Assembly (NCBI GenBank): GCA_965197745.1
Contig: CBDANS010000007.1
Location: 1,472,001 to 1,536,000, forward strand
From: Opitutales bacterium
GTDB taxonomy: Bacteria > Verrucomicrobiota > Verrucomicrobiia > Opitutales > PNEW01
Direction of reading: 5' to 3'
Length of the DNA stretch: 64,000 nucleotides
Below the pieces are notes generated by a model. It made no database searches. It was not told where the DNA came from and was given only the letters and a program-made list of their open reading frames with translations. Position 1 is the first letter of the stretch; every line of letters starts with the position of its first letter. Shown one piece after another: positions 25,412 to 47,680 of this stretch. Made by a program: the position numbers and the translations under genes.

Positions 25412-27625
25412 TCATTCTATTGTCACTTCTTCAGTTGTCACCGCGATATCATCCCCATCCTCGTTGGAGAACGTAGCGTCAATGCTCAGGGTCGGTTGAG
25501 GCGTTTCGTCAGACTTGAAATTGTTCTGTGTGATCAGAGTCTCAAACCCCGGTGTTGTCGATCCACTCTCCGCCACGACGATCGAAGCGCCATTCGTCTG
25601 CAACAGGTCTCCACCCGTGATGCGCAAACCGGGGTTGCCCGCCGGTACCGTGAAGGACCCGTCTCCGAACAGCAGGTGCGGCACCGCATCGCCGTCGGCG
25701 TCGATGTCGCCCACCGTTAAGCGTACCGCGATCGGCACTCCGCGCGCATCGAAGCCGACCTTGCCCGTGCTTCCACTGAACACGGCATTCGATAACTGTG
25801 CCCCTCCCAGTCCCGTGGAGTTGACTACTTCCACGAGTGCCACGTCGGCCTGGGCGTCATAGACCTGTCCTTCGGGGAACAGCGCCTGGTTAAAGGCGTT
25901 GATCCTGCCCACCGTGAAGATGCTGAAGAAGGTATTGGCGTCGGCTCCGTCGATGACCACGCTCGGCTTTCCCGTTACGTACTCCACGGCCTGGTTGTAG
26001 CGTGGTGGGACAGCCGGGGGCAGGAAGGTGGCCGGGTCCAGGGTTACGGTAAAGGTACCGTTACCTGAGAACTCTACCTGCACAATGTCCTCGTTTTCGT
26101 CCATGAAGGAAACACGGGTGATCTGTCCCGGTTTGGCCTGGAGTTGGACGGACTCTCCGGTGAGTAGTATCTGGTCGAAGACGTTGCCGTTGGCATGCTG
26201 AATGTCTTCACCCGCGATATCCCCCGAGCCGCCTAGGATGAGAAGCACCGGTGGTGCGGCAACGGTAATGACGGCCGTATCGCTGTTGGCGCTCCCTCCG
26301 GCGTTCGTTACCTGCACCCAGAAATTCGTGCTCGCGGTGAGTGCACCCGTGGTCAAGGTATTCGACGTAGCCCCGGCGATGGGATTAGCAGTGTTGCCGC
26401 TATTGCCTTCATACCACTGGTAAGTGAGATCGTCGCCGCTGGCTTCAACTGACAAAACGACAGCGGTCCCCGACTGCACTTCCTGGTTCGTGGGTTGGGT
26501 AGTGATAGGGGGAGCATCCGCGGGTGGCGGTGCTGAGGTATCAGTGCCCGGTGCGCCAATAGGAGTAAAACCGAAATCATCGAAGACTGTTGCGCTTCTC
26601 GCTATATTTACATTGGGATTGTCCTTAACAATAATTCTGTCAATGCCGCCTGGAGCTCCCAACTCTACAGTATTGATTGTAGTTTGACGGGGTTTAAGTA
26701 AAGCATCAAGACCCCCAGCACTTTCCAAGTCCGAAATGGTAGCAAGAAGGTTATCATTAGTATCGTAAACTTCGATTGTTCCGTCCGGGTCAGTAGTGCC
26801 GGTCAAAACAATGGCTGCGGCGAAAACATCGATTTCAAATGCCGGAGTTTCAAAGGTGACCGTGAAGCTTTCTCCGTTAGAAATCCCATAGGATTGAAGT
26901 CCCGATCGCGTTGGATTATTTGCGGCAGATAAAATCGAGCCCCCATCAAAAGTAGCACTAATAGGTGATTCCCCAACAATAATGGGTGCCGTTATTCCTG
27001 CACCCACACTAAAATCCTCAAAAGTAGTGAATACGGTGTTATTGGACGGTCTTTTCGTTATCGTGAAACCCAGATCGTCAAGGGAGAATTTTCCTGAAAC
27101 ATTTTTGATTTTTAATTCTTTAATGCCGTCGAGAAAGTCAAAATCGGTTGAGTCGAGGAACATATCACTGTCTGAAACAAAGCTTTGTAATGGGGGATTG
27201 GCACTGGGGCTGATATTGGTCGGTAAACCTTCGACAATACCATTTTCCGCTATAACTATTATAATGAATAGTTCTGAATCGGCCTTATTTCCTCTGGGCT
27301 CGATTCTGCCGGCTCCCGTATTCTCGGCCGCATAGAATTGGATTTCATCAATTCCTCTTTCCGATACAATTACCCCCTCCTGACCAGGTCCGAGGGTTAT
27401 CGCCTTTGTTCCGGAGTGTAAGAGCGCCGGATCTTCCAGAGTTTCCACCGTGAATCCGACTAACTTGATCCTATTGGGTTCTTCCCCAATGAAAAATTCA
27501 CCTTCCCCACTTATGTCCTCGAAATCCGTGAATACCTCAAGTTCTTGTGGAAGGGCCGACAGGCGTGCCGGTGAATAGAGTAAGAGAATCAGAATCGAAA
27601 TTATTTTTATAGTTTTATTATTCAT
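25412..27625 (-). CDS. Secreted Ig-domain surface protein, copy 2
   Basis: Same architecture as copy 1; the N-terminal framework is nearly identical to copy 5. Confidence 0.88.
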   Translation of the reverse strand: MNNKTIKIISILILLLYSPARLSALPQELEVFTDFEDISGEGEFFIGEEPNRIKLVGFTVETLEDPALLHSGTKAITLGPGQEGVIVSERGIDEIQFYAAENTGAGRIEPRGNKADSELFIIIVIAENGIVEGLPTNISPSANPPLQSFVSDSDMFLDSTDFDFLDGIKELKIKNVSGKFSLDDLGFTITKRPSNNTVFTTFEDFSVGAGITAPIIVGESPISATFDGGSILSAANNPTRSGLQSYGISNGESFTVTFETPAFEIDVFAAAIVLTGTTDPDGTIEVYDTNDNLLATISDLESAGGLDALLKPRQTTINTVELGAPGGIDRIIVKDNPNVNIARSATVFDDFGFTPIGAPGTDTSAPPPADAPPITTQPTNQEVQSGTAVVLSVEASGDDLTYQWYEGNSGNTANPIAGATSNTLTTGALTASTNFWVQVTNAGGSANSDTAVITVAAPPVLLILGGSGDIAGEDIQHANGNVFDQILLTGESVQLQAKPGQITRVSFMDENEDIVQVEFSGNGTFTVTLDPATFLPPAVPPRYNQAVEYVTGKPSVVIDGADANTFFSIFTVGRINAFNQALFPEGQVYDAQADVALVEVVNSTGLGGAQLSNAVFSGSTGKVGFDARGVPIAVRLTVGDIDADGDAVPHLLFGDGSFTVPAGNPGLRITGGDLLQTNGASIVVAESGSTTPGFETLITQNNFKSDETPQPTLSIDATFSNEDGDDIAVTTEEVTIE

Positions 27626-27952
27626 GGTGTCACAATGGTGTATCTTTCTTCTGGTGTAATTTTAATTCTCTAACACCCATTTTATAATATTACGATGTAA
27701 GTTTTTAATTATTTATAGGTTCGATAAAGCCTCACTTCTCCGCCATTTCAATTGTCGATTGCGGATATTCGATTGTGGATTGAGAAAACCGCAAAAGGCA
27801 CAAAAGGGATATTCAAGACGATGGATGTCGGAAACAAGATAAACCATGTATTTCCCGCGAGGGACAATCGAAAATCCGAATTCGAAAATCGAAAATTATC
27901 CCCCCCCTCTCCGCTATTTCAATTGTCGATTGGCGATTTTCGATTGCGGATT

Positions 27953-28278
27953 GAATAAAAAGTCGACGGTTGTAGGTTATTTCCTATTGTCATTGCGAGG
28001 AGCAACGCGACGCGGCAATCCAGTAAAATGTCTGTTGCGTAATGTAATTCCCGTGTTGTTGGGAATTACTCTCAACTAATCGATTTCCTTTAAATGAAGA
28101 GACGAATCCTCATTGGAAAGACCAGAGCAGAGATTTTTATTCGTAAGCACTATGACTATGTGCCTAGATTGCCGCAGTCGGTTGCACCTCCTTCGCAATG
28201 ACAAAAAGGGAAGGCGCTTATGCGCGTGTTATGTGTTAAGTTCCAAGTGTTAAGTAAATTAACCTAAAACCTGACACT
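27953..28278. repeat. ~325-bp duplicated intergenic block containing a TGTCATTGCG element (27988-28203) and a heptamer hairpin
   Basis: Near-identical to 48153-48480. Confidence 0.9.
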
Positions 28279-28288
28279 GATCGATAGC

Positions 28289-30520
28289 TCATTCAATCGT
28301 TACCTCATCAACCTCGACGGTAATCTCATCCCCATCTTCGTTGGCAAAAGTGGCATCAATGCTCTGTGTCGGTTGAGGAGTGTTGTCGGACTTGAAGTTG
28401 TTCTGCGTAATCAGGGTCTCAAACCCGGTCGTTGTTGAACCACTCTCCGCGACCACGACCGCTGCGCCGTTGGTCTGCAAGAGGTCTCCTCCGGTGATCC
28501 GCATCCCCGGGTTGCCCGCCGGTACCGTGAAGGACCCGTCTCCGAACAGCAGGTGCGGCACCGCATCGCCATCGGCGTCGATGTCGCCCACCGTTAACCG
28601 TACCGCGATCGGCACGCCGCGCGCATCGAAACCCACCTTACCCGTGCTTCCACTGAACACGGCATTCGATAACTGCACCCCTCCCAGTCCCGTGGAGTTG
28701 ACTACTTCCACGAGCGTCACGTCGGCCTGGGCGTCATAGACCTGTCCTTCGGGGAACAGTGCCTGGTTAAAGGCGTTGATCCTTCCCACCGTGAAAATGC
28801 TGAAGAAGGTATTGGCGTCAGCTCCATCGATGACCACGCTCGGTTTGCCCGTCACATATTCGACGGCCTGGTTGTAGCGTGGGGGGACGGCCGGAGGCAG
28901 GAAAGTGGCCGGGTCGAGGGATACGGTAAAGGTACCGTTACCTGAGAACTCTACCTGTACAATGTCTTCGTTTTCGTCCATGAACGAGACGCGGGTGATC
29001 TGATTCGGTCTTGCCTGGAGTTGAATGGACTCTCCGGTGAGTAATATCTGATCGAAGACATTGCCGTTGGCGTGCTGAATGTTTTCACCGGCGATGTCAC
29101 CCGAGCCGTCGAGGACCAAGGGCACGGAGGGGGCTGCTACGGTGATGACCGCGGTATTACTGTCAGCGCTTCCACCAGCGTTAGTTATCTGTGCCCAGTA
29201 GTTAGTGCTCGCAGTGAGAGCACCGGTAGTTAAAGTGCCACTGGTCGCACCGGCGATGGGACTGGCGGTGTCGCCGCTGTTGCCGGTATACCACTGGTAA
29301 GTGAGATCATCACCGCTGGCGGCAACAGTGAGGACTACCGCGGTGCCGGATGGGACCTCCTGGCTCGCGGGTTGGGTCGTGATCGCGGGAGCATCAGCGG
29401 GAGGTGGTCCTTCAGTACTTGTTCCCGGAGCGCCGATCGGCGTAAAACCAAAGTCGTCTATCCCCGTATGGCTCAATACATCATTGTTCAGTGTAGGATC
29501 GTCCTTAAAAACAAGCCTGCTGATTCCACCCGGCGCTCCTAATTCCACCGCGTTGACGGTAAAAAAATTGGGTTTAAATTGCGGTTGCACAGCCGACTCA
29601 AAATTAGTGAAGGTCCCGAGCAGGTTATCATTAGTATCGTAGACTTCAAATGAGCCATCGGGATCCTGCAATTGTACTCTAACCGTACTCTGTGCGTAAA
29701 ATTTTACTTCATAAGCCGGAGTTTCAAAGGTGACGGTGAATTCTTCACCATTTCTAATCGCATAACCTTGTGTTTGCGAATGAATTAAATCACATGCGCA
29801 TGAAAATTGTACTACAATCTGGCCCCCATCAAGGATGGCTGTATTGGGTGATGTCCCAACGACAATCGGTTCCAATATACCATCACCCACACCAAATTCA
29901 TCAAATCGGGTATAGACGCTACTATTGGAAGGTTTGTTCGTGAGTGTGTAGCCAAGATCATCGATGGAAAACTTACCTGAAACATTGAGGATCTTCACTT
30001 CTTTTATCCCTTCAAGGAATTCCAGGTCAGTGTCATCAAGAAAATCGCCGCTGTCAGCGATAAAGCTTTGCAATGGGGGGTTGGCGCCAAGGTTGATGTT
30101 GGCCGGCAGTCCTTCAACCTCACCATTATTTCCTATCACGGTTACTGTTGCAAAACTATCAGAGCCACCGAATTCAATTGGATTGACTAAACCTCTGATC
30201 TCGATTTTGCCACCCCCTGTTGATTCAGCCGCGTAAAATTCGATGGTAGCGATCCCACGGCTGCTTACGATTCGCCCCTCCTGGCCGGGTCCAAGGGTTA
30301 AAGCTTTCGATCCCGAGTGCAATAGTGCCGGATCTTCTAATGTCTCTATCGTAAAGCCAATAAACTGAATATCATTCGGTGGATCTCCGAGTCTAAAATC
30401 TCCCGAACCTTCGGCATCTTCAAAATCTAAAAAATTTTCCTGGTCTTGAGGAAGAGCTCGGAGAAGAATCGGTAAAAACAGTGAAATTAGCGATACGATA
30501 ACAATATTTTTTAAACGCAT
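28289..30520 (-). CDS. Secreted Ig-domain surface protein, copy 3
   Basis: Same architecture; the N-terminus MRLKNIV...RALPQDQENFLDFEDAEGS is shared with copy 6. Confidence 0.88.
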   Translation of the reverse strand: MRLKNIVIVSLISLFLPILLRALPQDQENFLDFEDAEGSGDFRLGDPPNDIQFIGFTIETLEDPALLHSGSKALTLGPGQEGRIVSSRGIATIEFYAAESTGGGKIEIRGLVNPIEFGGSDSFATVTVIGNNGEVEGLPANINLGANPPLQSFIADSGDFLDDTDLEFLEGIKEVKILNVSGKFSIDDLGYTLTNKPSNSSVYTRFDEFGVGDGILEPIVVGTSPNTAILDGGQIVVQFSCACDLIHSQTQGYAIRNGEEFTVTFETPAYEVKFYAQSTVRVQLQDPDGSFEVYDTNDNLLGTFTNFESAVQPQFKPNFFTVNAVELGAPGGISRLVFKDDPTLNNDVLSHTGIDDFGFTPIGAPGTSTEGPPPADAPAITTQPASQEVPSGTAVVLTVAASGDDLTYQWYTGNSGDTASPIAGATSGTLTTGALTASTNYWAQITNAGGSADSNTAVITVAAPSVPLVLDGSGDIAGENIQHANGNVFDQILLTGESIQLQARPNQITRVSFMDENEDIVQVEFSGNGTFTVSLDPATFLPPAVPPRYNQAVEYVTGKPSVVIDGADANTFFSIFTVGRINAFNQALFPEGQVYDAQADVTLVEVVNSTGLGGVQLSNAVFSGSTGKVGFDARGVPIAVRLTVGDIDADGDAVPHLLFGDGSFTVPAGNPGMRITGGDLLQTNGAAVVVAESGSTTTGFETLITQNNFKSDNTPQPTQSIDATFANEDGDEITVEVDEVTIE

Positions 30521-30635
30521 TTTGATCCCGCTTAATTTGATTTAAACCCTTGTTGCTGCAGCTGCTAGTTTTAACCAGTAGCGCGGTAAGATGCAGGTTT
30601 CAACAGAAAAAATAAATTTCGTAAATTTTTCAATT

Positions 30636-30798
30636 TGGAACTCAGGAATTAAAGAAAATTAACCACGAATGAACACGAATGCGAACTCAGCGTCTTTGCG
30701 GTGCAATCAATTTCCACTCTGTAATATTCTCTACTCTTTTCCTGAGTTCCATATGCCTAAACCTTCTCTGTATATTTTATTCGTGTTCATTCGTGGTT
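30636..30798. repeat. Two interleaved perfect inverted repeats in a divergent intergenic region
   Basis: A 30636-30648 pairs with A' 30739-30751 (13 bp); B 30661-30680 pairs with B' 30779-30798 (20 bp). Confidence 0.8.
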
Positions 30799-33800: not shown

Positions 33801-34159
33801 TGCGCGGTAACTTGCTCGACGAGTTGAAAAAACCTTATGTCATTACCGCCATGGCCAAGGGGCTGCGACCTTTTAAACTGTTGATAAAATATCCCGTGCG
33901 CTTGGCGCTTAATCCGTTTATTTCCAGTATCGGCGCGATCTTCCCGCAACTGGTTTCAGGTGGTGCTATTGTCGCGATGGTGCTCAGTCTCCCCACGGTG
34001 GGTCCGTTAATGCTCGATGCTCTGCTGAAGGAAGACATGTATTTAGCAGGATCGATGCTCATGGTTCTCAGCTTGCTCGGGGTCCTGGGCACCCTGGTCA
34101 GCGACCTCTTGCTCATGTGGCTGGATCCCCGGATACGAATGGAAGGAGGCAGCCGTTAA
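30875..34159 (+). CDS. ABC family-5 SBP-OppB permease fusion, paralog 2
   Basis: Colinear with and highly similar to 20867-24154 over its full length. Confidence 0.9.
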   Translation: MTKILKYCGLLFLTSCCFFGFLYFWSDVLKPKLEEEPIHYSREAIEYTENLRDVSFTEDDLFKIQQDVDYGEGKSGPWYPKGESSILAELVNEDKLPPVAERVGFEPVVLKGVDSIGSYGGTFFQVVGAPYQASFNGSFYAGSTLVRWSPLGYPIVPHIAKGWESSPDKKEWTFYLRRGMKWSDGHPFTADDILYWWDKGIAYDLYIELPDWMKVGGKTGKIVKIDDYTIKFVFPQPHGAFLEGLAGAIDYCSPRHYLEKYHPVFGDEALIEATLEARRLPSRKSLYALLQLWNNPEHPRLWPWVYRTFKANPPQTFVRNPYYWAVDTEGNQLPYIDQLFTEVKNYKLMPIAAANGTITFKIFGSMDFNYTLLMSLRETNDYEVYHWFPASRSRYLIHPNLNLWVDPDNPVTQMKHDLLNDNRFRQALSLAINRQQIIDIVYNRIGEPAQLSPGRESYFHHEKLHKSYTEYAPDRANQLLDAIGLTGRDTAGYRTFKDGTRMTWHYSLSQGEDEGPTELVIEDWSRIGIRAIQRQPPSALFRIQQTSRKVEFSMWPGNAEYIPIVGPERFVGLSSLQAHGYFNWYLRGGLSGSTEATQHDGIEPPIDHPLRRSMELLEEAYGATTREAQREIFNNIFDIAAENVWSISITTSPPHPVVVKNDLKNVPRKAAYSGRFHPPSNAGLETYYFKEPYHSPGTVAQIKKELIEITPAPYHLVADKHESKSIKHLIKLVKYLLIGVFICGMIMVGVRHPYIGRRLLIMGPSLLIISVISFVIIQLPPGNFIETKILELQLRGGRMDISEAEKLREIFHLDKPIVERYAHWLGLYWFTSFEKKYQGLLQGHMGLSMENQSPVNEVVGDRVLLTFLISLGTILFTWALALPIGIYSAVRQYTLGDYVFTLIGFIGMSVPSFLLALILLYWSGKYLGINISGLFSPEYAIQPGWPREKILDLLQHIWVPVVVLGVTGTAGMIRVMRGNLLDELKKPYVITAMAKGLRPFKLLIKYPVRLALNPFISSIGAIFPQLVSGGAIVAMVLSLPTVGPLMLDALLKEDMYLAGSMLMVLSLLGVLGTLVSDLLLMWLDPRIRMEGGSR

Positions 34160-38867: not shown

Positions 38868-38927
38868 ATCGAACAGAGCGCACCAGCGGACGCGGACAAG
38901 CCGCACCACTGAGCCTTGACGTTCTGC
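38868..38927 (+). mobile_element. Solitary integron attC-like site
   Basis: atcGAAC-agagc-GCACCAGC-ggacgcggacaagccgcacc-ACTGAGC-cttgac-GTTCtgc shows the R''-L''-stem-L'-R' layout, 10 nt after a stop codon. Confidence 0.5.
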
Positions 38928-38956
38928 GGAAATAAAATCACAAGAGAATAGAAAAA

Positions 38957-40000
38957 ATGCGATTCATTCAAATTGGTGTAGGTGGATTTGGCAAAGGGTG
39001 GGTACAACGGCTGACAAATAATTCATCTGTCGAAGTCGTTGCGCTGGTAGATGTGAATCAGACTGCCCTGACGGCTGCCCGCAAAGTTGGGAATTACGGA
39101 AAAGATATTTGCTTCTCAAAACTGAACGAAGCGTTGAAGAAGGTCAAAGCGGATGCCCTCGTATGCGTTACTCCACCTGAGTATCACAAGCAGTGTGTGG
39201 TCCAGGCCATGAAGGCGGGTCTTGACGTGATTACCGAGAAACCGATGGCCGATAATCTTGCCAGTTGCATGTCAATCCTGAGAGCATCACGAAATACCGG
39301 ACAGACATGTGTTGTCAGCCAGAATTATCGCTATAGACCGGAAACATGGACACTCGCTCGTCTGGTCGAAAGTGGACGTATTGGCGATATCGGCCAGGTT
39401 AAGATAGATTTCTATATGGGCCATGATTTTGGCGGTGGATTCCGTCATGAAATGAGAGATCCTCTCCTAATTGATATGGCGATACATCATTTTGACCTCG
39501 TTCGCTTTGTTACCGGTCTCAATGCCATGTCTGTCCGAGGTGAAACCTGGAATCCTGCATGGTCAAACTACAAAGGTGACAGTTCGTCTTCGCTGGTGTT
39601 TGAGATGGAGAATAATGTACGTGTCGTCTACAACGCGAGCTGGTCTTCTAAGGGTCAATTCTGTAGCGCGGATGGCAACTGGCTGATTGAGGGTAGTAAG
39701 GGGTCCATTTCATATGAGAATGGAAAGATTTCTCTCAGGAAGGTGCCCAAGCTTTACAAGGTTAATAGGACAGATACGTTTCGGGCAAAAGGACCGGAAA
39801 ACACCATGCAGGATTTTGTTCTTAACGACTTTATTTTTTCAGTAAAAAGCGGTAAACGACCGCAAACAGATGTATATGACAACATACACAGCGTTGCCAT
39901 GGTTTTCGCGGCAGTCAAAGCGGTCAGAACCGGTAAACGAGTTCCTGTTCTGGACAAACGTGTGCAGCAGTTGAATGTAGATGTATGGGAAGAAGCTTAA
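38957..40000 (+). CDS. Gfo/Idh/MocA family oxidoreductase
   Basis: IQIGVGGFG Rossmann motif, VTPPEYH, VITEKPMA and DMAIHHFD. Confidence 0.9.
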   Translation: MRFIQIGVGGFGKGWVQRLTNNSSVEVVALVDVNQTALTAARKVGNYGKDICFSKLNEALKKVKADALVCVTPPEYHKQCVVQAMKAGLDVITEKPMADNLASCMSILRASRNTGQTCVVSQNYRYRPETWTLARLVESGRIGDIGQVKIDFYMGHDFGGGFRHEMRDPLLIDMAIHHFDLVRFVTGLNAMSVRGETWNPAWSNYKGDSSSSLVFEMENNVRVVYNASWSSKGQFCSADGNWLIEGSKGSISYENGKISLRKVPKLYKVNRTDTFRAKGPENTMQDFVLNDFIFSVKSGKRPQTDVYDNIHSVAMVFAAVKAVRTGKRVPVLDKRVQQLNVDVWEEA

Positions 40001-40150
40001 GATCCCCGGGAGTTAAGAAAGGGAAAGGTATAAACCTGAACGGGTTGGGTATTCTCAATAAGTCATATGGAATTACCCACCACTTTTATTTACCCCAAGG
40101 CTAGAAGCTTGACAGATATTTAGGAAGCTCGTCAACTTCATGATACCAAG

Positions 40151-41026
40151 ATGATCACCCATTCCCCGAACAGGGAACCTTTGTCCATGAAGACATCTGA
40201 CAGAGAAAAATACCAGGTGAGTCTTGACGAGCGACATTTTTTCGGCCGCAACGGCTATCTCAAGGTCGAAGGTCTGCTTTCCAACTCGGAGTTGCGGGAA
40301 CTTGATGCACACTCCATGAACCTGCTTCACAACAAAGTGGATCTGAGCCAAATCAAAGGACTGGATCCGAGAAACGACGGCACCACACCGGCCGATATGG
40401 AAGAAAAATATTTCCGCTTCTTTCAGTTCCACCGTCACCTCGAAATCCATGAGCGCTTCATGCTCCACCCCCGTGTCCTCGATGTCCTGGAAGCCCTCAT
40501 CGGCCCCGACTTGATGGCCATGCAGTCGATGCTGTTCTTCAAGCCGCCGGGCCACCCCGGGCAGGCCTTTCACCAGGATTCATGCTTTATTACCTCTGCG
40601 CCCGATACCCTCTGCGGCACCTGGATCGCGATCGATGATTGCGACGAGGAAAACGGCTGCATGTCATTTATCCCCGGCTCTAATTTCGACCCTATCTATG
40701 AAAATACAACCCTGCCTGAAAACACCGAAGATTTTCATGCCCAACTTTTCGAACTCGCGGGTGTGGACCAAAGCAAGGAAATTCTGGCCGAAGCCAAGGG
40801 TGGGGATGTGATTTTCTTCCACGGCCACCTCATCCACCGTTCACACCGAAACCGCAGTAAGAATCGTTACCGGCGCGCTTTTGTGAGTCACTACGCCAAC
40901 GCCCGCTCATATACCGAATGGAGCGGCGGTAATGCCAACCAAATCCTCGTCCGAGGCGCCACCCACCTGCCCTTTGCCCGAGCCCGTTTCATCGCGCACG
41001 AACCCGAATCCATCGAAAAGGAGTAA
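40151..41026 (+). CDS. PhyH family dioxygenase
   Basis: FFKPPG..GQAFHQD, WIAIDD....NGC..FIPGS and GDVIFFHGHLIHRS. The start may be a downstream ATG. Confidence 0.88.
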   Translation: MITHSPNREPLSMKTSDREKYQVSLDERHFFGRNGYLKVEGLLSNSELRELDAHSMNLLHNKVDLSQIKGLDPRNDGTTPADMEEKYFRFFQFHRHLEIHERFMLHPRVLDVLEALIGPDLMAMQSMLFFKPPGHPGQAFHQDSCFITSAPDTLCGTWIAIDDCDEENGCMSFIPGSNFDPIYENTTLPENTEDFHAQLFELAGVDQSKEILAEAKGGDVIFFHGHLIHRSHRNRSKNRYRRAFVSHYANARSYTEWSGGNANQILVRGATHLPFARARFIAHEPESIEKE

Positions 41027-41029
41027 TTC

Positions 41030-41263
41030 ATGTCACACATCAAAGTTCCGGCTATTTTCCTGGCCCAGTTTATGCGGGACGATGAACCCTACAACACCAT
41101 CGACAATATCGACTGGTGGGTCGCAGGTCTGGGATACAAGGGGGTGCAGATCCCGGCCTGGGACGAGCGCGCCATCGACCTGGACAAAGCCGCGGAATCC
41201 AAAACCTACTGTAATGAATACAGGGGCAAGCTCCAGGAGATGGGTCTCGAACCCGCCTTGTAA
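41030..41263 (+). pseudogene. Sugar-phosphate isomerase/epimerase (xylose-isomerase-like TIM barrel) N-terminal fragment
   Basis: PAIFLAQF...LGYKGVQIPAWD...IDLDKAAES..YC is only 77 aa, far too short for a TIM barrel. Confidence 0.7.
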
Positions 41264-41417
41264 CCTTATTAACTGTTTGATTTTTAAGCGGTAATAAAAG
41301 GCATCTGGCTGTAAAAGAAGGACTTGGACGCGCAATCGTCCATTGCTTTAAATATTAGAAAAAGCGATCAAGCAGTAACTAGAGGTAAGTAATGGCAATA
41401 AATCTGATACAATTAAT

Positions 41418-41500
41418 GGGGGCGGGGGCGGTAAAAAAACATACCCTTAATCAATCGATAATCCATTAACCCGTATGCGGCGGAGGTGTTTTTTCCCAGA
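41418..41500 (+). repeat. G-rich motif family copy
   Basis: gggggcgggggcggtaaaaaaacataccc...caatcgataatccattaacccgtatgcggcggagg. Confidence 0.75.
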
Positions 41501-41602
41501 GAGGATTTAATAGTTAACCAATCACAGGATAGTAATCTCAAGCGCTGAGGAGCGCTGACGACGTTTTTATGAATGAGGGGATAACTGGCATACCCCTTGA
41601 AG

Positions 41603-41765
41603 GATCATTCGATCGTTTCCTCATTCACGGTTACCGCAATCTCATCACCATCTTCGTTTGCGAAGATTGCTTCGACAGTCTGCGTCGGTTGTGGAGTGTT
41701 GTCGGACTTGAAGTTGTTCTGGGAGATCAAGGTTTCAATTCCTTTCGTTGTCAGTCCACTCTCTA
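41603..41765 (-). pseudogene. Orphan 3' remnant of the Ig-domain surface protein family (remnant C)
   Basis: ESGLTTKGIETLISQNNFKSDNTPQPTQTVEAIFANEDGDEIAVTVNEETIE* followed by tccttcaaggggtat. Confidence 0.85.
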
Positions 41766-43805
41766 CCAACCCCGATCAAAAAAGAATTGTTCGGGGCGGG
41801 CGATGCCGGGGGTTTGTAAGGTTCCGCTGTTTGGCGCGACATCGGGAACATTACGAAAATTATTTTTTACCACGACAATGCCGTTCATGCCCGGTGATTG
41901 CCCGACAGTGCCAACAACATAGAGATTGTCTGAATGGATTCTCCATATTTCTTTTCCCAGTTCCGTTCGCATCGCTTTGGGCAGGCCATTACCTTCCTCA
42001 AATATTTCTATCAAACGTTTAAGATCTCCACAAGGGGCCACGCCCTTTCGACCGTTAGATTCATACCATAAGCCGATTTGCGACGCAAAGGTACCGCGAC
42101 TGAGTGGTATGGTCATGCCGGGTAAAGTCCACGGGTTTTCAGAACCGCCCGAAACCCACATGCTAAGTTGGTGATCGTTGATTGATTGACGTCTGCTATA
42201 ATAACTTCGCTCTTCAACGCTTAAATGTATATTTATGCCGATATCCTTCCAATGATTCACGAGAAGTTCAGCTATACCTTCAAAATTAACCATCGCCTGA
42301 CTCAGCACTGATTGCGTAATAATCAGACGTTCCTTATTGTCAGTGCGCAGTCGGTATCCTTCGTTGTCCTTTTTATCCAAACCGATAGCGTCGAGGATCG
42401 CGTTGGATTGTTCCAGGTCGCGCACCGCATTCTTTTTTTCGTACTCCGGTCCGGGATAATACGGGTTATTCGGGAATGGGACGAAGGCCCTTGGCTGACC
42501 CATGCCCAGAAAGATCGATTCGTGTATCTCCTCTCGATCGATAGCAAGAGACAGAGCAATGCGAAATTTACGGTTTCTAAGCCACTTTTCTATTTCCGGA
42601 TCTCCCTGCCAGGTTTGGTTAATAAATATTATGGCATCGGAACCTCCTAAATTAGGCCAGAAGAGTACGCGGTAATTACCTCTTTTTGCTTCCCGCTTGA
42701 GAACAGGGACCTTGTCCAAGAGGACATGACGGTGCTGCATGTCTACTTCTCCAGCCATAACGCGAGCATTGAACACCTCTAAGTCCTCAACCAGATGCAT
42801 TACAATCTTGTCGATATAGGGAAGCTGATTCCCTTCGGGATCGACGGCAAAGTAATAGGGGTTGCGTTCCAAAGAGTAAATTTCACTCGTTATCGGAGTA
42901 ACCATCTTCCAGGGACCGACCACCGGTATTTCGGGGTTCTCGTGGGGCGAAGCCATGCGTTTGAAGAGTTGCACCCAACTTCTATCACCCGTAGACTTCA
43001 TCTTAATTTTCAGATCACTTAAGGGGGTATACTTCGAGTGAAACTGCATTAAATAATGCCGGGGAGCATAGAGAGGGCTTTCCCATCTGCGGGCGAATTG
43101 GCCTCCCACCGCTAATCCACCAGCATTTTCGATGAATACATAGTTTGGTTTATGAAAGGTATAACGAACCGTGGTCTCATCTAACTTTTCCACTTTAAAC
43201 CGTTGCCCATCCGCTTTTGTGTAGTTGGGTATTACCGGGTTGATATTATCATTCAAGGTCACGTCTTCGAAGGCGAAAACAAAGTCATCAGCCGTGAACG
43301 GCGCTCCGTCAGACCACTTCATGCCCTGGCGCAGATGGAAAGTAAACATTGTCCCGTCTACGCTGATTTCCCATCCTTTCGCGATGTGGGGCATCAGGGT
43401 ATAACCGTCGATATCGAAGTAAATTATATGATCGTGTATTATCCGGTCGATGTTGTTACGATCGCCACGCCCCGTAAAACCGCGGCGCCAGGTACCACCG
43501 TATTGGCCGATGCGTTCAATGGGTGGAATAATCAACGGATCTTCGGGCAGACGGTCTTCTACCGAGGGCAACTCTCCCGCAGCAACGCGCTTTGCCAGTT
43601 CCGGCGCTTCGTTGAAAGTTGTGGGAATCGAGCCCTTATAAATAAAACTAAATCCTTCAGTACTGACAGCGTCTCGTTTAAGTGTGTCCAGTTTTCCTTT
43701 TGATTGAGTGTCATTGCTCCTGCTGCAGCCAAATGCTGCAATAATGATTGCCATCATGCATAGTGTGATCGGTATCCGATACCTGCTGAAATAGAATACC
43801 TTCAT
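41763..43805 (-). CDS. ABC transporter family-5 solute-binding lipoprotein, paralog of 36833-38857
   Basis: Lipobox-like AAFGC; colinear with 36833-38857; ends FFFDRGW instead of FFFEN. Confidence 0.9.
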   Translation of the reverse strand: MKVFYFSRYRIPITLCMMAIIIAAFGCSRSNDTQSKGKLDTLKRDAVSTEGFSFIYKGSIPTTFNEAPELAKRVAAGELPSVEDRLPEDPLIIPPIERIGQYGGTWRRGFTGRGDRNNIDRIIHDHIIYFDIDGYTLMPHIAKGWEISVDGTMFTFHLRQGMKWSDGAPFTADDFVFAFEDVTLNDNINPVIPNYTKADGQRFKVEKLDETTVRYTFHKPNYVFIENAGGLAVGGQFARRWESPLYAPRHYLMQFHSKYTPLSDLKIKMKSTGDRSWVQLFKRMASPHENPEIPVVGPWKMVTPITSEIYSLERNPYYFAVDPEGNQLPYIDKIVMHLVEDLEVFNARVMAGEVDMQHRHVLLDKVPVLKREAKRGNYRVLFWPNLGGSDAIIFINQTWQGDPEIEKWLRNRKFRIALSLAIDREEIHESIFLGMGQPRAFVPFPNNPYYPGPEYEKKNAVRDLEQSNAILDAIGLDKKDNEGYRLRTDNKERLIITQSVLSQAMVNFEGIAELLVNHWKDIGINIHLSVEERSYYSRRQSINDHQLSMWVSGGSENPWTLPGMTIPLSRGTFASQIGLWYESNGRKGVAPCGDLKRLIEIFEEGNGLPKAMRTELGKEIWRIHSDNLYVVGTVGQSPGMNGIVVVKNNFRNVPDVAPNSGTLQTPGIARPEQFFFDRGW

Positions 43806-44295
43806 AACGCTAATTAAGCTAAGACAGTGTAGTATCGATTAGGGTAGGTGATAATGTAAATGTTTCGTCATTGTTAGTTATCAGTATAATCGAGATAATC
43901 AATAATCTTTGCCTGCCTCTTCGTCACAGCTAATTTTTGGTAACTTTGATTCTTAACCCATATTTACCATATCATCATAAGAATATTTGCTTGCAATTAT
44001 CGCTATCTTGTTGATAATAAGTCATTTAATGCGACGTTAAGCAAGCAAACTCTCAAAATCCAATGGATGACGCAAGATTCTCTAACCGCACAGAATCACT
44101 CACGCCAGTATTCCTCGGGTAACGGTCAAATTCTCAATGAACAGTAATTACCGCCTATGCAACTTTCAGATACCACGGAGAAAGGATTGCCAAAGTGTCT
44201 TGAGAGGAGCAAAATGCTTTCGAAAGCTTCAGAGGTCGACAATTTTAACGATTCATTCCCGTCATATGGGAAATCCCGGATAACAAATCAAAGAT

Positions 44296-45054
44296 ATGAG
44301 TAAACTACGTGTTCTTATTTGGAATGAATTCGTCGATGAGAGAAAAATGGAAGAAGTGAAATCTATCTATCCTCAAGGTATTCATGAAACATTAATGAGG
44401 GAATTAATGGAAATTGGTAAAGATCTGGAAATTGAAACTGCTACACTCGAAGATCAAGAACATGGCTTAACTGGCTCACGTTTAGCTAAAACAGATGTGC
44501 TGGTTTGGTGGGGACACTGTGCCCACGATAAAGTTGACGAAACTATTAGCGAAAGAGTACAAATACGCGTGCTTGAAGGTATGGGATTTATCCCCTTACA
44601 TTCCGCTCATTTATCAAAAGTTTTTCTTCGCCTCATGGGTACGACATGTACGTTGAATTGGCGTGAAGTCGGTGAGAAAGAGCGGTTGTGGGTATGCAAC
44701 CCGGGGCACCCCATCGCCGAGGGAATCGATGAATGCTTTGAAATAGAAAACACCGAGATGTATGGTGAACCTTTCGATATTCCACCACCTGAAGAACAGA
44801 TTTTTATTTCATGGTTTGAGGGTGGAGAGGTTTTTCGCAGTGGGAACTGCTGGCGTCGCGGCAATGGAAAAATTTTCTACTTTCGACCTGGGCATGAAAC
44901 TTTTCCGATTTATCAAAATAAGACGGTTATCAAGATAATCTACAATGCGATAAAATGGGCCGCTCCGCAGGGGATCTGGCGAGAGTCTTTAAGAAATGTT
45001 CCGATCGAGCTTGCCCGTGAAAAAATTATCGGAAATCGTAGAAAAGAATCCTAA
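44296..45054 (+). CDS. thuA: Trehalose-utilisation ThuA-like protein
   Basis: VLIWNE...IYPQGIH, DVLVWWGH.AH, LHSAH.SK.F, EMYGEPFDIP.P, SWFEGGEVFRSG and FYFRPGHETFPIY. Confidence 0.88.
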   Translation: MSKLRVLIWNEFVDERKMEEVKSIYPQGIHETLMRELMEIGKDLEIETATLEDQEHGLTGSRLAKTDVLVWWGHCAHDKVDETISERVQIRVLEGMGFIPLHSAHLSKVFLRLMGTTCTLNWREVGEKERLWVCNPGHPIAEGIDECFEIENTEMYGEPFDIPPPEEQIFISWFEGGEVFRSGNCWRRGNGKIFYFRPGHETFPIYQNKTVIKIIYNAIKWAAPQGIWRESLRNVPIELAREKIIGNRRKES

Positions 45055-45349
45055 AAAGGGAGTTTGTTAAATTTAAGTTTTGCTCATCTATATGGTGCTT
45101 AATAGGAGAGGTACTAAGATAGTTAATAAAGCTTCGTCTTCGTCCGCAGAGGCGAGTTACCTGACCGCCGCTGTAACTTTAAATTGAATAGCGAAAGCTG
45201 ATCTCTAGCACGCTTCTTCAATGACGACATAATCAAACGCGCTAGGGACAGCCTTCGCTGTGTCGTGATAGGCTACGGCGGTCAGGCAGCGCATTCCACC
45301 TTAATTCTTTCAAGCCAAGGTGGAGCGGGATGCGGGCGCTTATGCACGT

Positions 45350-45407
45350 TTTAGGTTTTAAGTTTTAGGTGTTAAGTAATTTAACCTAAAACCTAACACT
45401 TAACACC
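45350..45407. terminator. Heptamer-repeat hairpin downstream of Ig copy 5 (possible terminator)
   Basis: ttaggttttaagttttaggtgttaag...ttaacctaaaacctaacacttaacac. Related hairpins lie downstream of copies 3, 4 and 6. Confidence 0.45.
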
Positions 45408-45454
45408 CGTGGCACGCCACAGCATAGCGACGGCGGCTAACACTTATCGATAGT

Positions 45455-47680
45455 TCATTCAATGGTTATCTCATCCACCTCGACGGATATCTCTTCGTCG
45501 TCCTCATTGACAAACGTTGCATTAATGGTCTGTGTCGGCTGAGGCGTGTTGTCTGATTTGAAGTTGTTCTGCGTGATCAAGGTATCGAATCCCGTCGTCG
45601 TCGATCCACTCTCCGCTACCACGACTGCCGCACCGTTCGTCTGTAACAAGTCGCCACCCGTGATCCGTAACCCGGGGTTGCCGGCTGGAACGGTGAAGGA
45701 GCCTGAGCCAAATAATATGTGCGGTACCGCATCGCCACTGGCATCGATGTCGCCAATCGTTAAGCGTACCCCGATCGGTACCCCACGCGCGTCGATACCG
45801 GTCTTGCCCGTACTTCCACTGAACACGGTGTTCGACAGTTGTATGCCGCCCATGCCCGTGGAATTTACAATTTCCACGAGGGTCACGTCCGCTTGCGCGT
45901 CATAGACCTGTCCTTCGGGGAAGAGGGCCTGGTTAAACGCGTTGATCCTACCCACGGTGAAGATACTGAAGAAGGTATTGGCGTCCGCTCCGTCGATCAC
46001 TACGCTCGGTTTGCCCGTCACGTACTCAACGGCTTGGTTGTAGCGTGGGGGGATGGCCGGGGGGAGGAAGGTGGCCGGATCCAGGGTTACGGTAAAGGTC
46101 CCTGCGCCCGAGAACTCTACCTGCACGATATCCTCGTTTTCATCCATGAAAGAGACGCGGGTGATCTGTCCCGATTTGGCCTGGAGTTGGACGGACTCTC
46201 CGGTGAGTAAAATCTGGTCGAAGACATTACCGTTGGCATGCTGAATGTTTTCACCGGCGATATCACCCGAACCGTCGAGGACGAGAGGAACGGCCGGGGC
46301 TGCGATGGTGATAACAGCGGTATCGCTATCGGCTGTACCTCCAGCGTTAGTTATCTGCACCCAGAAGCTTGTGCTCGCGGTGAGCGCGCCGGTGTCCAGC
46401 GTACTACCGGTTGCTCCAGCGACGGGAGCGGCGGTGTCACCGCTGTTTCCGGTGTACCACTGGTAAGTGAGATCATCACCACTGGCGGCGACAGACAAGC
46501 TCGCCGTGGTGCCGGATGCAACTTCCTGGCTCGCGGGCTGTGTGGTGATAGAGGGAGCATCAGCGGGTGGGGGACCCTCGGAGCCTGTGCCCGGTGCGCC
46601 AATGGGGGTAAAACCGAAATCATCGAAGACTGTCCGGCTGAAAGCTACATTTATATTGGGATTGTCCGTAACAAGCAGTCTGCCAATGCCGCCTGGAGCT
46701 CCCAACTCCACCGCATTGATCGTAGTTTGACGGGGTTTATTTAAAGAATTAAGACCCCCAGCACCCCCACCACTTCCAGCACTTTCCAAGTCCGAAATAT
46801 TAGCAAGAAGGTTATCATTAGTATCGTAAACTTCAATTGAGCCGTCGGGGTCAGTACCGCCAGCCAAAATAATGGCTGCGGCGAAAACATCGATCTCAAA
46901 TGCCGGAGTTTCAAAAGTGACCGTGAAGCTTTCTCCGTTAAAAATACCATAGGATACTTGTCCCGAGCGAACTGGACTGTCTGCAGCAGCAGCTAGAATC
47001 GAGCCACCATCAAAAGTAGCACTATTGGGTGATTCTCCAACAATAATGGGTGCCGTTAATCCTGCACCCACACTGAATTCCTCAAATGTAGTGAATACGG
47101 TGTTATTGGACGGTCTTTCCGTTATCGTGAAACCCAGATCGTCAAGGGAGAATTTTCCTGAAACATTTTTGATTTTTAATTCTTTAATGCCGTCGAGAAA
47201 GTCAAAATCGGTTGAGTCGAGGAACATATCACTGTCTGAAACGAAGCTTTGTAATGGGGGATTGGCACCGGGACTGATATTGGTCGGTAGACCTTCGACA
47301 ATACCATTATCCGCTAGAATTAATACAAATATATTGCCTTCAAAAGAGATATTTCCTCTGGGCTCGATTCTACCGGCTCCCGTATTCTCGGCCGCATAGA
47401 ATTGGATTTCATCAATTCCTCTTTCCGATACAATTACCCCCTCCTGACCAGGTCCTAGGGTTATCGCTTTTGTTCCGGAGTGTAAAAGCGCAGGATCCTC
47501 TAAAGTTTCAACGGTGAATCCGACTAACTTGATCCTATTGGGCTCTTCCCCGATAAAAAATTCACCTTCACCGCTGATGTCCTCGAAATCAGTGAACACC
47601 TCCAGATCTTGAGGAAGAGCTATTAGAAGAAGAGGGGATAAAACTGAGAAAATAATGATCGCTAACGAATTATTTTTCAT
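45455..47680 (-). CDS. Secreted Ig-domain surface protein, copy 5
   Basis: Same architecture; closest to copy 2 in the N-terminal domains. Confidence 0.88.
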   Translation of the reverse strand: MKNNSLAIIIFSVLSPLLLIALPQDLEVFTDFEDISGEGEFFIGEEPNRIKLVGFTVETLEDPALLHSGTKAITLGPGQEGVIVSERGIDEIQFYAAENTGAGRIEPRGNISFEGNIFVLILADNGIVEGLPTNISPGANPPLQSFVSDSDMFLDSTDFDFLDGIKELKIKNVSGKFSLDDLGFTITERPSNNTVFTTFEEFSVGAGLTAPIIVGESPNSATFDGGSILAAAADSPVRSGQVSYGIFNGESFTVTFETPAFEIDVFAAAIILAGGTDPDGSIEVYDTNDNLLANISDLESAGSGGGAGGLNSLNKPRQTTINAVELGAPGGIGRLLVTDNPNINVAFSRTVFDDFGFTPIGAPGTGSEGPPPADAPSITTQPASQEVASGTTASLSVAASGDDLTYQWYTGNSGDTAAPVAGATGSTLDTGALTASTSFWVQITNAGGTADSDTAVITIAAPAVPLVLDGSGDIAGENIQHANGNVFDQILLTGESVQLQAKSGQITRVSFMDENEDIVQVEFSGAGTFTVTLDPATFLPPAIPPRYNQAVEYVTGKPSVVIDGADANTFFSIFTVGRINAFNQALFPEGQVYDAQADVTLVEIVNSTGMGGIQLSNTVFSGSTGKTGIDARGVPIGVRLTIGDIDASGDAVPHILFGSGSFTVPAGNPGLRITGGDLLQTNGAAVVVAESGSTTTGFDTLITQNNFKSDNTPQPTQTINATFVNEDDEEISVEVDEITIE

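Follow-up and report, generated by a model that had tools for sequence, protein, structure and literature searches.

Known Systems with Variable Stretches in a Conserved Framework

Short hypervariable stretches set in a near-identical ligand-binding scaffold are known from the targets of diversity-generating retroelements (DGRs), such as those of the Mtd and TvpA types. Discrete variable regions within a conserved framework are also found in gene-conversion-prone families that undergo cassette-fed antigenic variation (tprK, pilE/pilS, vlsE, msp2). Carbohydrate-binding modules (CBMs) represent a further type: the tandem CBM22-1/CBM22-2 of Paenibacillus barcinonensis Xyn10C (4xup), CBM6 and CBM35 are beta-sandwich modules with a variable loop site, and one published account describes loops of CBM6 that join the sheets as forming a "variable loop site" for the ligand beside the site on the concave face (PMC10956234).

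A Family of Secreted Multi-Domain Proteins

The window analysed here, a 64,000-nucleotide stretch of the genome of a marine Opitutales bacterium, contains six copies of a gene whose products combine near-identical and highly variable segments, as a sequence-only reading had recognized. All are on the reverse strand: copy 1 (16791..19112; 773 aa, with a TTG start as listed), copy 2 (c2; 25412..27625; 737 aa), copy 3 (28289..30520; 743 aa), copy 4 (34435..36693; 752 aa), copy 5 (c5; 45455..47680; 741 aa), which has a c2-like architecture, and copy 6 (48526..50733), which carries an interrupting TAA at 50023-50025 within the second of the five variable loops described below. A third gene closely related to c2 and c5, designated c0, lies just outside the window, its end being about 40 bases short of the window start.

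The layout of c2 was established from its open reading frame, Pfam, a fold model and fold searches. A signal peptide is followed by two CBM-like beta-sandwich modules, an Ig_7 domain (residues 372-457; 26255..26512, reverse strand) and a conserved C-terminal domain (residues 460-737; 25415..26248, reverse strand). Pfam matched only the Ig_7 region of c2 (residues 375-456, with a sub-threshold Ig_3 match over the same stretch) and gave no family for its other domains. Structural searches with the C-terminal domain returned nearly exclusively beta-helix or beta-solenoid proteins, with a best Z of 6.6 or less. The same plan holds for the family, the C-terminal domain of ~278 residues being nearly invariant behind the signal peptide, the two modules and Ig_7. 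By eye, the N-terminus of the c2/c5 family looks like an ordinary signal peptide, and a lipobox cysteine was not seen.

A search of its own genome with the c2 protein gave 124 matches, 43 of which cover more than 650 of the 737 residues, i.e., the 4.45-Mb genome carries 43 full-length genes, and the 39 that are intact were used for the paralogue alignment. All copies are full-length genes, and each has an upstream region and a signal peptide distinct from those of the others. At an E-value of 1e-20, the N-domain is present in all three other genomes of the same taxonomic family and in none of the genomes that represent 17 further families of the order, one per family. An SBP_bac_5-like gene lies within 3 kb of 6 of the 43 family genes (random placement: mean 1.8, maximum 8 in 1000 trials), and the association with adjacent ABC-transporter genes is local only.

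Five Variable Blocks Coincide with Loops of a CBM-Like Fold

The N-domain was modelled as two tandem CBM-like beta-sandwich modules (pLDDT 90.0, pTM 0.85). The best structural match of module 2 is 8x8h, a carbohydrate-binding domain (Z 11.0; 129 residues at an rmsd of 2.8), followed by the porphyran-binding CBM 8xmz (Z 10.2), the DUF4465 protein 4jqr (Z 10.1) and CBM22 4xuo (Z 9.2); for module 1, the matches are 9mui (Z 9.6) and CBM61 2xom (Z 8.8). The top Foldseek match is the tandem CBM22 4xup (E 1e-9). The same fold also matches binders of ligands other than glycans, among them toxin receptor-binding domains and a DUF4465 protein in a structure with vitamin B12 (9hmu).

Within the near-identical part of c2 and c5, variation is concentrated in five blocks, all read on the reverse strand. 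Block B1 (residues 114-125 of c2, 27251..27286; c5, 47315-47350) corresponds to a hairpin loop and strand of module 1, and the other four are loops of module 2: B2 (residues 233-249, 26879..26929; c5, 46940-46993), B3 (residues 271-277, 26795..26815; c5, 46856-46876), B4 (residues 296-310, 26696..26740; c5, 46739-46801, with a 6-codon Gly/Ser insertion relative to c2) and B5 (residues 331-345, 26591..26635; c5, 46634-46678). In the model they are residues 91-102, 210-226, 248-254, 273-287 and 308-322, respectively. DSSP places them between strands, with a pLDDT of 69-81 (69 for B1) against 91-98 elsewhere. The proposal that the variable blocks are loops was therefore borne out: in the confidently predicted all-beta fold, the centre of each block lies between strands.

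In this part of c2 and c5, the five loops account for every in-frame indel and for almost every amino-acid replacement, with non-synonymous differences at 47.9 of 148.2 block sites versus 9.0 of 483.0 framework sites (Fisher p 1e-24). The 33-nucleotide block that had been described as largely replaced is B1, in which 16 of 36 bases are identical between flanks identical at 89/90 and 85/90 positions; the variant peptides quoted for B2-B5 are present as quoted. The same positions also vary with indels in other copies, as had been claimed, the blocks being hot spots of both entropy and indels in the 39-paralogue alignment. Changes within the blocks of c2, c5 and c0 include indels and every base type. 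B1 is AT-rich and shows several small indels between c2 and c0, and the resulting alignment uncertainty inflates codon-wise counts there.

A Near-Identical Internal Tract in Mosaic Genes

The near-identity of c2 and c5 over long stretches is real (the example of 27300-27390 against 47364-47454 shows 90 of 91 bases identical), but these stretches are not N-terminal as had been stated: the tract is internal. It covers residues 75-350 of c2 (26576..27403, reverse strand) and 72-354 of c5 (46619..47467, reverse strand) and ends at two stretches conserved family-wide, DPALLHSGTKA and DDFGFTPIGAPG. Third-position identity is 13-15/15 in windows inside the tract, 3-11/15 before residue ~61-76 and 5-9/15 in the Ig region after ~361. 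The framework of the tract has a dS of 0.142 and a dN of 0.019; outside the tract, dS reaches 1.05 over residues 26-74, 1.9 in the Ig domain and 0.91 in the C-terminal domain, which, as had been noticed, differs mainly synonymously (dN 0.080, ratio 0.09). Thus, the tract of ~0.85 kb is of recent common ancestry, and the histories of the 5' ends, Ig domains and C-terminal domains are different and older.

Such mosaicism extends through the family. The N-tract and the C-domain share their nearest paralogue in 3 of the 39 genes, the N-tract and the Ig domain in 2, and the Ig and C-domains in 8; the Ig domain of c2 has its nearest relative in a different paralogue and its C-terminal domain in yet another (0.91 nucleotide identity). 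A segment of the window (38905..47621) is also common to a distant genome, G002: 38905-43921 and 44071-45252 are 98.4-98.5% identical and c5 (45537-47621) is 93.8% identical, and the dS of the housekeeping genes nqrA and nqrB between the two genomes is 1.5-1.8. The gene modules therefore have separate histories and have been exchanged among paralogues and also among distantly related genomes.

Could the near-identical tracts be false, produced by an assembly that collapsed reads of related strains or paralogues into chimeras? The genes form a highly repetitive family, contigs assembled from short reads of public runs fragment inside them, and the genome is metagenome-derived, with relatives recorded as MAGs. 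We nevertheless hold an artefact to be very improbable, given that the contig carrying the window is 2.14 Mb long, that the exact c2 protein is recorded from three contigs, the longest of 2.29 Mb, that contig pieces from three studies match the c2 tract with 0-1 other letters, and that the pattern of tract and blocks recurs in the orthologues of two further near-closed genomes.

Rates of Evolution in the Blocks

Rates were obtained from Nei-Gojobori counts and parsimony, both of which are crude. The blocks of c2 and c5 have a dN of 0.423, and their pN of 0.323 exceeds the framework pS of 0.129 (p 4.7e-5, and 1.3e-4 in a second test; ratio 2.4 to 2.5). For the other pairs of the trio, the corresponding p is 2e-4 (c5-c0) and 0.08 (c2-c0). 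Outside the trio, an excess was found between c2 and gene G1a of genome G001 (p 0.013; the c2-c5 and c2-G1a ratios are 2.4 to 2.6) and between G1a and G2b of genome G002 (ratio 1.84, p 0.0026). The latter two are positional orthologues with collinear flanks of 87-96% identity, and they carry c2-type and c5-type loops at a framework dS of 0.19. The expectation that dN/dS itself would exceed 1 in the loops found no general support: within the blocks it is 1.19, 0.94 and 0.87 in the three trio pairs, none significantly above 1. On a tree of the 8-sequence subfamily, block dN/dS is 1.17 and the rate of block non-synonymous to framework synonymous change is 1.21; B1 has 52.2 non-synonymous events against 21.6 expected (2.4 times the framework synonymous rate; Poisson 2e-8), a figure inflated by the alignment uncertainty. 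Among 20 close paralogue pairs, block pN is significantly above framework pS in three, and 17 are within neutral expectation (for example, 0.244 vs 0.190 and 0.240 vs 0.222). The ratio is 1.13 for c5-G2b, 1.22 for G1d-G2d and 0.25 for the orthologue pair G1b-G2a, whose blocks are under purifying selection.

The blocks are the fastest-evolving part of the protein at all divergence levels examined. Since the c2-c5 excess is 2.4-fold, while most close pairs are near 1 and the tree gives 1.17, the loops appear to be largely unconstrained, with lineage-specific acceleration. Positive selection on the blocks as a general rule is not supported, the excess being confined to some pairs. Of the original proposal, that the loops are under diversifying selection or block replacement, what survives is the excess in the trio and one patch, B2 of c5, discussed below; as a rule for the family it is not supported by the tree or by the 17 pairs.

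The simplest account of such values would be pure relaxed constraint, in which surface loops tolerate any sequence and change by neutral drift and indel slippage, without any bearing on adaptation or on a ligand. The subfamily rates, the close pairs with block pN near framework pS, the trio dN/dS, the AT-richness and small indels of B1 and the low model confidence at the blocks are all in line with it. Neutrality cannot, however, yield the excesses in c2-c5, c2-G1a and G1a-G2b, nor the B1 rate on the tree, inflated though that is. Nor does it agree with stability: G1b-G2a retains its blocks, and in contigs of runs from three studies, c2 B1 differs at 0, 0 and 1 letters and c2 B2 at 0, 0 and 3. 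We regard pure relaxed constraint as possible but rather doubtful.

Blocks are stably inherited in orthologues, and from the retention in G1b-G2a and the near-constancy of c2 B1 and B2 across studies it follows that the loops are constrained once set. Compared with their closest database relatives, c2 differs at 9/66 block and 1/210 framework residues (P0002) and c5 at 28/73 and 3/210 (P0006).

A Search for Donors and Diversifying Machinery

At codons for identical amino acids, synonymous change between c2 and c5 is not raised overall in the blocks (6/52, versus 17/181 in the framework), and most block change must therefore be replacement in place. B1 (0/3), B3 (0/8), B4 (0/15) and B5 (1/11) show no excess. 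B2 of c5 reaches the background level of synonymous change, with 5/15 against 17/181 relative to c2 (p 0.016) and 4/13 relative to c0 (p 0.05), which fits a replaced or older patch.

This patch, the sharp edges of B1 between its well-conserved flanks and the pervasive recombination among family modules could all be expected if short gene-conversion patches from other family members had overwritten the blocks as units, much as donor cassettes or a diversity-generating retroelement would, or if the blocks had escaped conversion that homogenised the framework. The absence of excess synonymous change in the other four blocks and the stability of c2 B1 and B2 across samples argue against such templated replacement, as do the searches for its components. 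None of the 15 block sequences (five each in c2, c5 and c0) has a second copy in the genome outside the trio, the best matches there being 12-21 bases long, for the most part exact words of 12-15, at E 0.1 or more. The other 36 aligned full-length paralogues were considered as block donors and rejected, their best identity to B1 and B2 (0.48-0.61) being too low. A search of the genome (92% complete) for an RVT_1 reverse transcriptase gave no match; control genomes did score. Templated replacement is thus an unlikely origin of the blocks, and the family does not look like a programmed hypervariation system, since neither a reverse transcriptase nor donor cassettes were found and c2 B1 and B2 are stable in three studies. 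The description of the loops as "CDR-like" stands as an analogy; the diversifying machinery that it might imply was not found, and the two c2 blocks changed by at most three letters across the studies.

We consider it probable that this is a family-specific expansion in which putative binding loops specialise fast, forming a germline repertoire with no programmed hypervariation; the c2/c5 loop pattern looks like ordinary, though fast, binding-loop specialisation. The five loops may be the ligand-contacting, specificity-determining loops of both modules, in which case they would correspond to the variable loop site of beta-sandwich CBMs. They would change in place, by point substitutions and small indels under weak constraint, with bursts of positive selection when a copy or allele gains a new ligand, after which the loops would remain stable. 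The outcome would be a germline repertoire in which different binding heads share a constant base.

Comparison with Known Systems

The c2 family resembles the CBM22 tandem in its two beta-jelly-roll modules (structural Z of 9.1-9.2 with CBM22 entries; other CBM-type domains reach 11.0) and CBMs in the concentration of variation in inter-strand loops. Unlike CBMs, its modules come without a recognisable glycoside hydrolase and sit on Ig_7 and an unnamed constant domain, none of the five intact copies in the window matched a Pfam CBM family (E 1e-3), and there are at least 43 copies per genome. Surface glycan- and cofactor-binding proteins of Bacteroidota (SGBP-B 7kwb; DUF4465 4jqr, 9hmu and 9i2l, the last in an entry titled BtuJ2) are likewise secreted multi-module beta-sandwich binders. 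Foldseek matches the N-domain to 7kwb (E 2e-7), DUF4465 structures, including one determined with vitamin B12, match its modules with Z 9.1-10.1, and DUF4465 is the nearest named cluster in a protein-atlas search (score 0.83, a lead only); Pfam DUF4465 was not matched in the five intact window copies and, unlike the genes of the Bacteroidota binders, those of the c2 family lie outside SusC/SusD loci.

The differences from dedicated variation systems are of another kind. In DGRs, a reverse transcriptase and a template repeat would be expected, whereas neither was found in the c2 genome, and the changes in the family include indels and all base types in loops that are stable between samples. Unlike cassette-fed systems, in which donor fragments (not found here) supply the variable regions, the c2 family consists of full-length copies with their own upstream regions and stably inherited blocks.

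Architecture and distribution of the family

The six copies of the secreted-protein family in the window are all on the minus strand, at 16791-19112 (c1), 25412-27625 (c2), 28289-30520 (c3), 34435-36693 (c4), 45455-47680 (c5) and 48526-50733 (c6). A third close relative of c2 and c5, named c0 (G000:C7:1469828, plus strand), stands immediately before the window, which corresponds to G000:C7:1472001-1536000 in this genome (G000; 4.45 Mb in 7 contigs). Copy c6 is interrupted by a TAA at 50023-50025, inside the hypervariable loop B2 (c2 residue ~239), and may be a pseudogene or contain a sequencing error at this position.

Alignment of the window copies reveals, behind a signal peptide (called by eye only), an N-domain of ~340 residues built from two beta-sandwich modules; Ig_7 follows, and a conserved domain of ~278 residues forms the C-terminus. 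Pfam recognizes Ig_7 in 5/5 intact window copies near residues 375-457, a stretch on which Ig_3 or PKD also score more weakly, in most cases below threshold, and has no family for the first ~370 or the last ~278 residues of the window copies. The head and the tail of these proteins are thus without a Pfam family, and a full-text literature search found no paper on the family, which is weak evidence for proteins that lack a name under which they could be looked up.

When the c2 protein was searched against its own genome, 124 matches were obtained, 43 of which span more than 650 of the 737 residues; at 2.2 kb each, these 43 genes make up about 2% of the genome by our own arithmetic, and 39 of them are intact and constitute the paralogue alignment used throughout. 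The C-terminal domain is also present alone, behind other heads, in many further genes of this genome. All three further genomes from its taxonomic family carry the N-domain, with 65, 56 and 12 matches, and it is absent, at E 1e-20, from 17 other families of the order represented by one genome each. The database records of relatives read "MAG: Opitutales bacterium" and "Verrucomicrobia bacterium Opi.OSU.00C".

Pieces of the constant C-terminal domain occur elsewhere in the window. Its last 104 residues follow in frame after an FG-GAP repeat ORF (129-2987, ending in TAA TGA; the whole spans 129-3305), an arrangement which, judged from the sequence, looks like a remnant of an old fusion or recombination event. 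Two more remnants are on the minus strand, the longer at 8342-8653 and the shorter at 41608-41769.

Sharply bounded variable blocks in a near-identical tract

Copies c2 and c5 are 83% identical at the DNA level overall, 87% in the N-terminal and 79% in the C-terminal half. The sequence-only reading had described long N-terminal stretches of near-identity interrupted by short blocks of difference. The near-identity itself is correct, with 90 of 91 positions identical in the example chosen, but third-position identity shows that the tract is internal, extending from residue ~70 to residue ~360; its ends fall on two stretches with good family-wide conservation (residues 65-75 and 349-360). The five blocks given as examples in that reading (B1-B5) all recur when c2, c5 and c0 are aligned by codon, with indels in B1, B2 and B4, and their columns have the highest entropy and the most gaps among the 39 aligned paralogues. 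In B1, 16 of 36 nucleotides are identical between c2 and c5, while the flanks are identical at 89/90 and 85/90 positions. The pattern is therefore real and sharply bounded. Any two of the 39 paralogues share on average 0.38-0.47 of their nucleotides within the blocks, 0.6-0.7 within the framework of the N-domain and 0.8-0.9 within the C-terminal domain.

B1 is AT-rich, and compensated frameshifts were considered as its source. A free nucleotide alignment of c2 and c5 fails to restore identity, and c2 and c0, which differ in B1 by several small indels, align better when these are allowed, which implies that B1 changes by indels together with substitutions and not by a single pair of frameshifts.

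Substitution rates and selection

The substitution rates between c2 and c5 differ from one part of the gene to another. In the framework (residues 75-350 minus the blocks) dS is 0.142 and dN 0.019 (dN/dS 0.13), and in the five blocks dS is 0.355 and dN 0.423 (dN/dS 1.19). Residues 26-74 give dS 1.05 and dN 0.009 (0.01), the Ig domain dS 1.92 and dN 0.160 (0.08), and the C-terminal domain dS 0.91 and dN 0.080 (0.09); the C-terminal domains thus differ mainly at synonymous sites, as the sequence-only reading had noticed. The raised dS of the blocks, obtained by the Nei-Gojobori method, is mostly an artefact of codons with multiple hits and disappears, B2 of c5 excepted, at codons for identical amino acids, where synonymous differences between c2 and c5 amount to 6/52 in the blocks and 17/181 in the framework. 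In B2 of c5 such differences number 5/15 against c2 (p 0.016) and 4/13 against c0 (p 0.05), a level that matches what the remaining domains show as background (0.36-0.43), which suggests that B2 of c5 is an older or replaced patch; in this one case a whole block may have been exchanged.

Within the blocks, dN/dS for the three pairs among c2, c5 and c0 is 0.87-1.19, and none is significantly above 1. Measured against the synonymous level of the framework, block pN is 0.323 vs 0.129 for c2-c5 (p 4.7e-5), 0.335 vs 0.146 for c5-c0 (p 1.9e-4) and 0.211 vs 0.141 for c2-c0 (p 0.077). Framework pS is <0.45 in 20 paralogue pairs. Block pN is significantly higher than framework pS in three of these (c2-c5, c5-c0 and C7_2037216/C6_1103887) and about equal to it in most, and the two youngest pairs contain no block replacements. 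Parsimony counts on a subfamily tree of eight sequences (c2, c5, c0 and five from two other genomes, G001 and G002) place dN/dS at 0.20 in the framework and at 1.17 in the blocks; per site, B1 has 1.91 non-synonymous events, compared with 0.79 for synonymous events in the framework (Poisson 2e-8), an excess inflated by alignment uncertainty.

Two origins of the variable loops had been proposed from the sequence alone. Diversifying selection is supported for particular lineages, such as c2-c5 (block change 2.4 times framework dS, p 1e-4), and for B1, but not in general, the tree value being 1.17. Block replacement may account for B2 of c5, but no donor was found for any block in the 92% of the genome available. 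The pattern is best explained by c2, c5 and c0 being mosaic genes that share a head cassette of recent common origin, and by five loops evolving at or above the neutral rate on two carbohydrate-binding-module (CBM)-like modules, with the scaffold under purifying selection (ratio 0.13-0.24) and the constant tail under strong purifying selection (ratio ~0.09).

Orthologues and the age of the loop sets

Database relatives keep loops specific to each type, and nearly all of the differences fall in the blocks: c2 and P0002 differ at 9/66 block and 1/210 framework positions, c5 and P0006 at 28/73 and 3/210, and c0 and P0007 at 11/65 and 15/210. The counterpart of c2 in G001, G1a, has a framework dS of 0.06 and a block pN/framework pS ratio of 2.57 (p 0.013), and the counterpart of c5 in G002, G2b, has a framework dS of 0.03 and a ratio of 1.13. 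G1a (L041, G001:C1:3427998-3432014) has one in-frame stop, and the open frame left is 443 aa long. G1a and G2b are syntenic, with collinear flanks of 87-96% identity, yet G1a has the c2-type and G2b the c5-type loop set (ratio 1.84, p 0.0026); housekeeping dS between G001 and G002 is 0.14-0.18. The two loop sets thus diverged between orthologues of sister species. Another orthologous pair of these genomes, G1b and G2a, has a framework dS of 0.17 and a ratio of 0.25, so the loops of this pair are conserved. Concerted evolution of the framework within a single genome is not needed to account for the near-identity, since framework dS among c2, c5 and c0 (0.14-0.16) is higher than dS to the counterparts in G001 and G002 (0.03-0.06) and since the tree groups sequences by type and not by genome.

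Search for a programmed diversifying mechanism

A near-identical framework carrying short hypervariable loops invites comparison with dedicated diversifying systems, and several were considered. A diversity-generating retroelement (DGR) was rejected: the reverse transcriptase profile RVT_1 (PF00078) gave no match in this 92%-complete genome, and the same search gave matches in 3/14 known genomes used as a control. No template repeat was detected either, as the 15 block sequences matched only themselves and c2, c5 and c0 in a blastn-short search of the genome. Donor cassettes were rejected because the alignment offers no plausible donor among the other 36 full-length paralogues and the genome-wide blastn-short search gave none; silent cassettes matching the variable regions were likewise not found in the 92% of the genome available, although the missing part may contain a donor. 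The regions upstream of the 39 genes have no common motif, the commonest 8-mer being present in only 7/39, which argues against a shared promoter or invertible element, and the upstream regions of c2, c5 and c0 differ from one another.

In contigs of runs from three studies, the letters that differ from c2 number 0, 0 and 1 in B1 and 0, 0 and 3 in B2, with the qualification that contigs hide rare variants and that the source sample may itself be among these runs. One metatranscriptome run yielded 11 small contig pieces, of which one, 289 bases long, crosses B1 with 4 other letters; DNA carry-over is possible there. Over the C-terminal domain, to which many paralogues and organisms map, the depth is 30- to 100-fold greater.

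Mosaic genes, probable transfer between lineages and the neighbourhood

Different parts of the family genes have different nearest relatives. The nearest paralogue is the same for the N-tract and the C-terminal domain in 3/39 genes, for the N-tract and the Ig domain in 2/39, and for the Ig and C-terminal domains in 8/39; C-terminal domain pS is 0.40-0.51 even in pairs with identical N-tracts. In G000:C4:21794 and G000:C5:218741 the N-tracts and Ig domains are identical (pS 0.00) and pS of the C-terminal domains is 0.40; on this alignment the pair is the clearest case of apparent tail swapping.

Exchange appears to have crossed lineages as well. A segment of ~8.7 kb is shared between window positions 38905-47621 and G002:C1:1632276-1641024 (extent as matched within the window), in the order GFO/IDH/MocA oxidoreductase, PhyH, SBP_bac_5, ThuA and c5. 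Its first four genes and their spacers (38905-45252) are 98.4-98.5% identical to G002, and the adjoining c5 is 93.8% identical. Set against a dS of 1.5-1.8 for nqrA and nqrB of this genome vs G001 and G002, the 98.4% identity indicates a probable recent transfer between distant Opitutales lineages, after which parts of the c5 gene would have been overwritten from resident paralogues; dS between the Ig domains of c5 and G2b is 1.74.

The family copies are interspersed with SBP_bac_5 genes, SBP_bac_5-permease fusions, PhyH dioxygenases, ThuA and GFO/IDH/MocA oxidoreductase genes. The region is bordered by an IS remnant, a BNR protein and a cyclase on one side and by the NQR operon on the other. 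Four PhyH-type dioxygenase genes (19703-20554, 24275-25063, 40151-41026 and 51342-52139) lie between family copies and SBP_bac_5 genes, and this interleaving suggests a unit of three gene types that has been duplicated repeatedly. An obligatory capture-and-import pairing with an ABC transporter was dropped because only 6/43 copies genome-wide are within 3 kb of an SBP_bac_5-like gene. In two paralogous genes of ~1095 aa (20867-24154 and 30875-34159) SBP_bac_5 and the BPD_transp_1 permease are fused in one polypeptide, an arrangement apparently uncommon for this transporter family. Two overlapping ORFs (12839-13793) encode rve and rve_3 integrase core domains and represent a split or frameshifted IS transposase where the accessory region ends. 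An 856-aa ORF at 4343-6913 (minus strand) has no Pfam match and a local G+C of ~60% vs ~46% around it.

Predicted fold of head and tail

The head of c2 (residues 24-362), modelled from an alignment with 38 paralogues, is predicted to form two all-beta modules (pLDDT 90.0, pTM 0.85). Foldseek ranks the tandem CBM22 pair 4xup first (E 1e-9), ahead of reelin repeats, SGBP-B and tandem CBM51. In a VIA-align search of 48,161 chains, module 2 matched the carbohydrate-binding domain 8x8h (Z 11.0), the porphyran-binding CBM 8xmz (10.2), the DUF4465 protein 4jqr (10.1) and CBM22 (4xuo, 9.2), and module 1 matched 9mui (Z 9.6) and CBM61 (2xom, Z 8.8). According to secondary structure and pLDDT, every block is centred on a stretch between strands, where pLDDT drops to 69-81. 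The C-terminal domain is modelled with pLDDT 94.8 and has no structural match at Z 8 or above; the best matches, at Z 6.6 or below and nearly all to beta-helix or beta-solenoid proteins, leave it with no clear structural relative.

The heads share the beta-jelly-roll fold of CAZy CBMs such as CBM22 and related beta-sandwich CBMs, but they are not members of described CBM families by sequence, with no Pfam CBM at E 1e-3 in the five intact window copies. The likeness to DUF4465 (PF14717; 4jqr, 9hmu, 9i2l) is one of fold only (Z 9.1-10.1, plus a protein-atlas lead at 0.83), the PF14717 profile being unmatched at E 1e-3 in the window copies. In CBM6 the loops between the two sheets make up a recognized ligand site, the variable loop site (PMC10956234), which may serve by analogy as a comparison for the head loops.

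Implications and comparison with known systems

These observations can be drawn together in a single scenario, in which each genome would encode ~45-65 loop-diversified receptors that all use the same constant, beta-helix-like base. Short episodes of selection acting on five loops in the two modules of the head would generate new specificities, and heads would be traded as ~0.85-kb cassettes through recombination at conserved linkers, both among paralogues and among distant co-living Opitutales lineages. That such a germline repertoire, with its selection bursts and head trading, amounts to a shared, horizontally exchanged toolkit for recognition of host or prey glycans is a speculative and rather unlikely proposal. 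If the loops do set ligand specificity, the family would be the main way in which these marine Opitutales recognize their surroundings.

In that case c2, c5 and c0 would constitute a natural experiment, with different loop sets on a near-identical scaffold and timing fixed by orthologues. The data exemplify module-wise gene evolution, where head, Ig domain and tail have separate histories, as well as recent gene exchange between genomes whose housekeeping synonymous sites are saturated. A near-identical framework with CDR-like loops and no dedicated diversifying machinery is also a useful negative control for scans for such systems. In the scenario outlined here the family would be functionally analogous to variable-receptor repertoires, from which it differs in being without somatic diversification.
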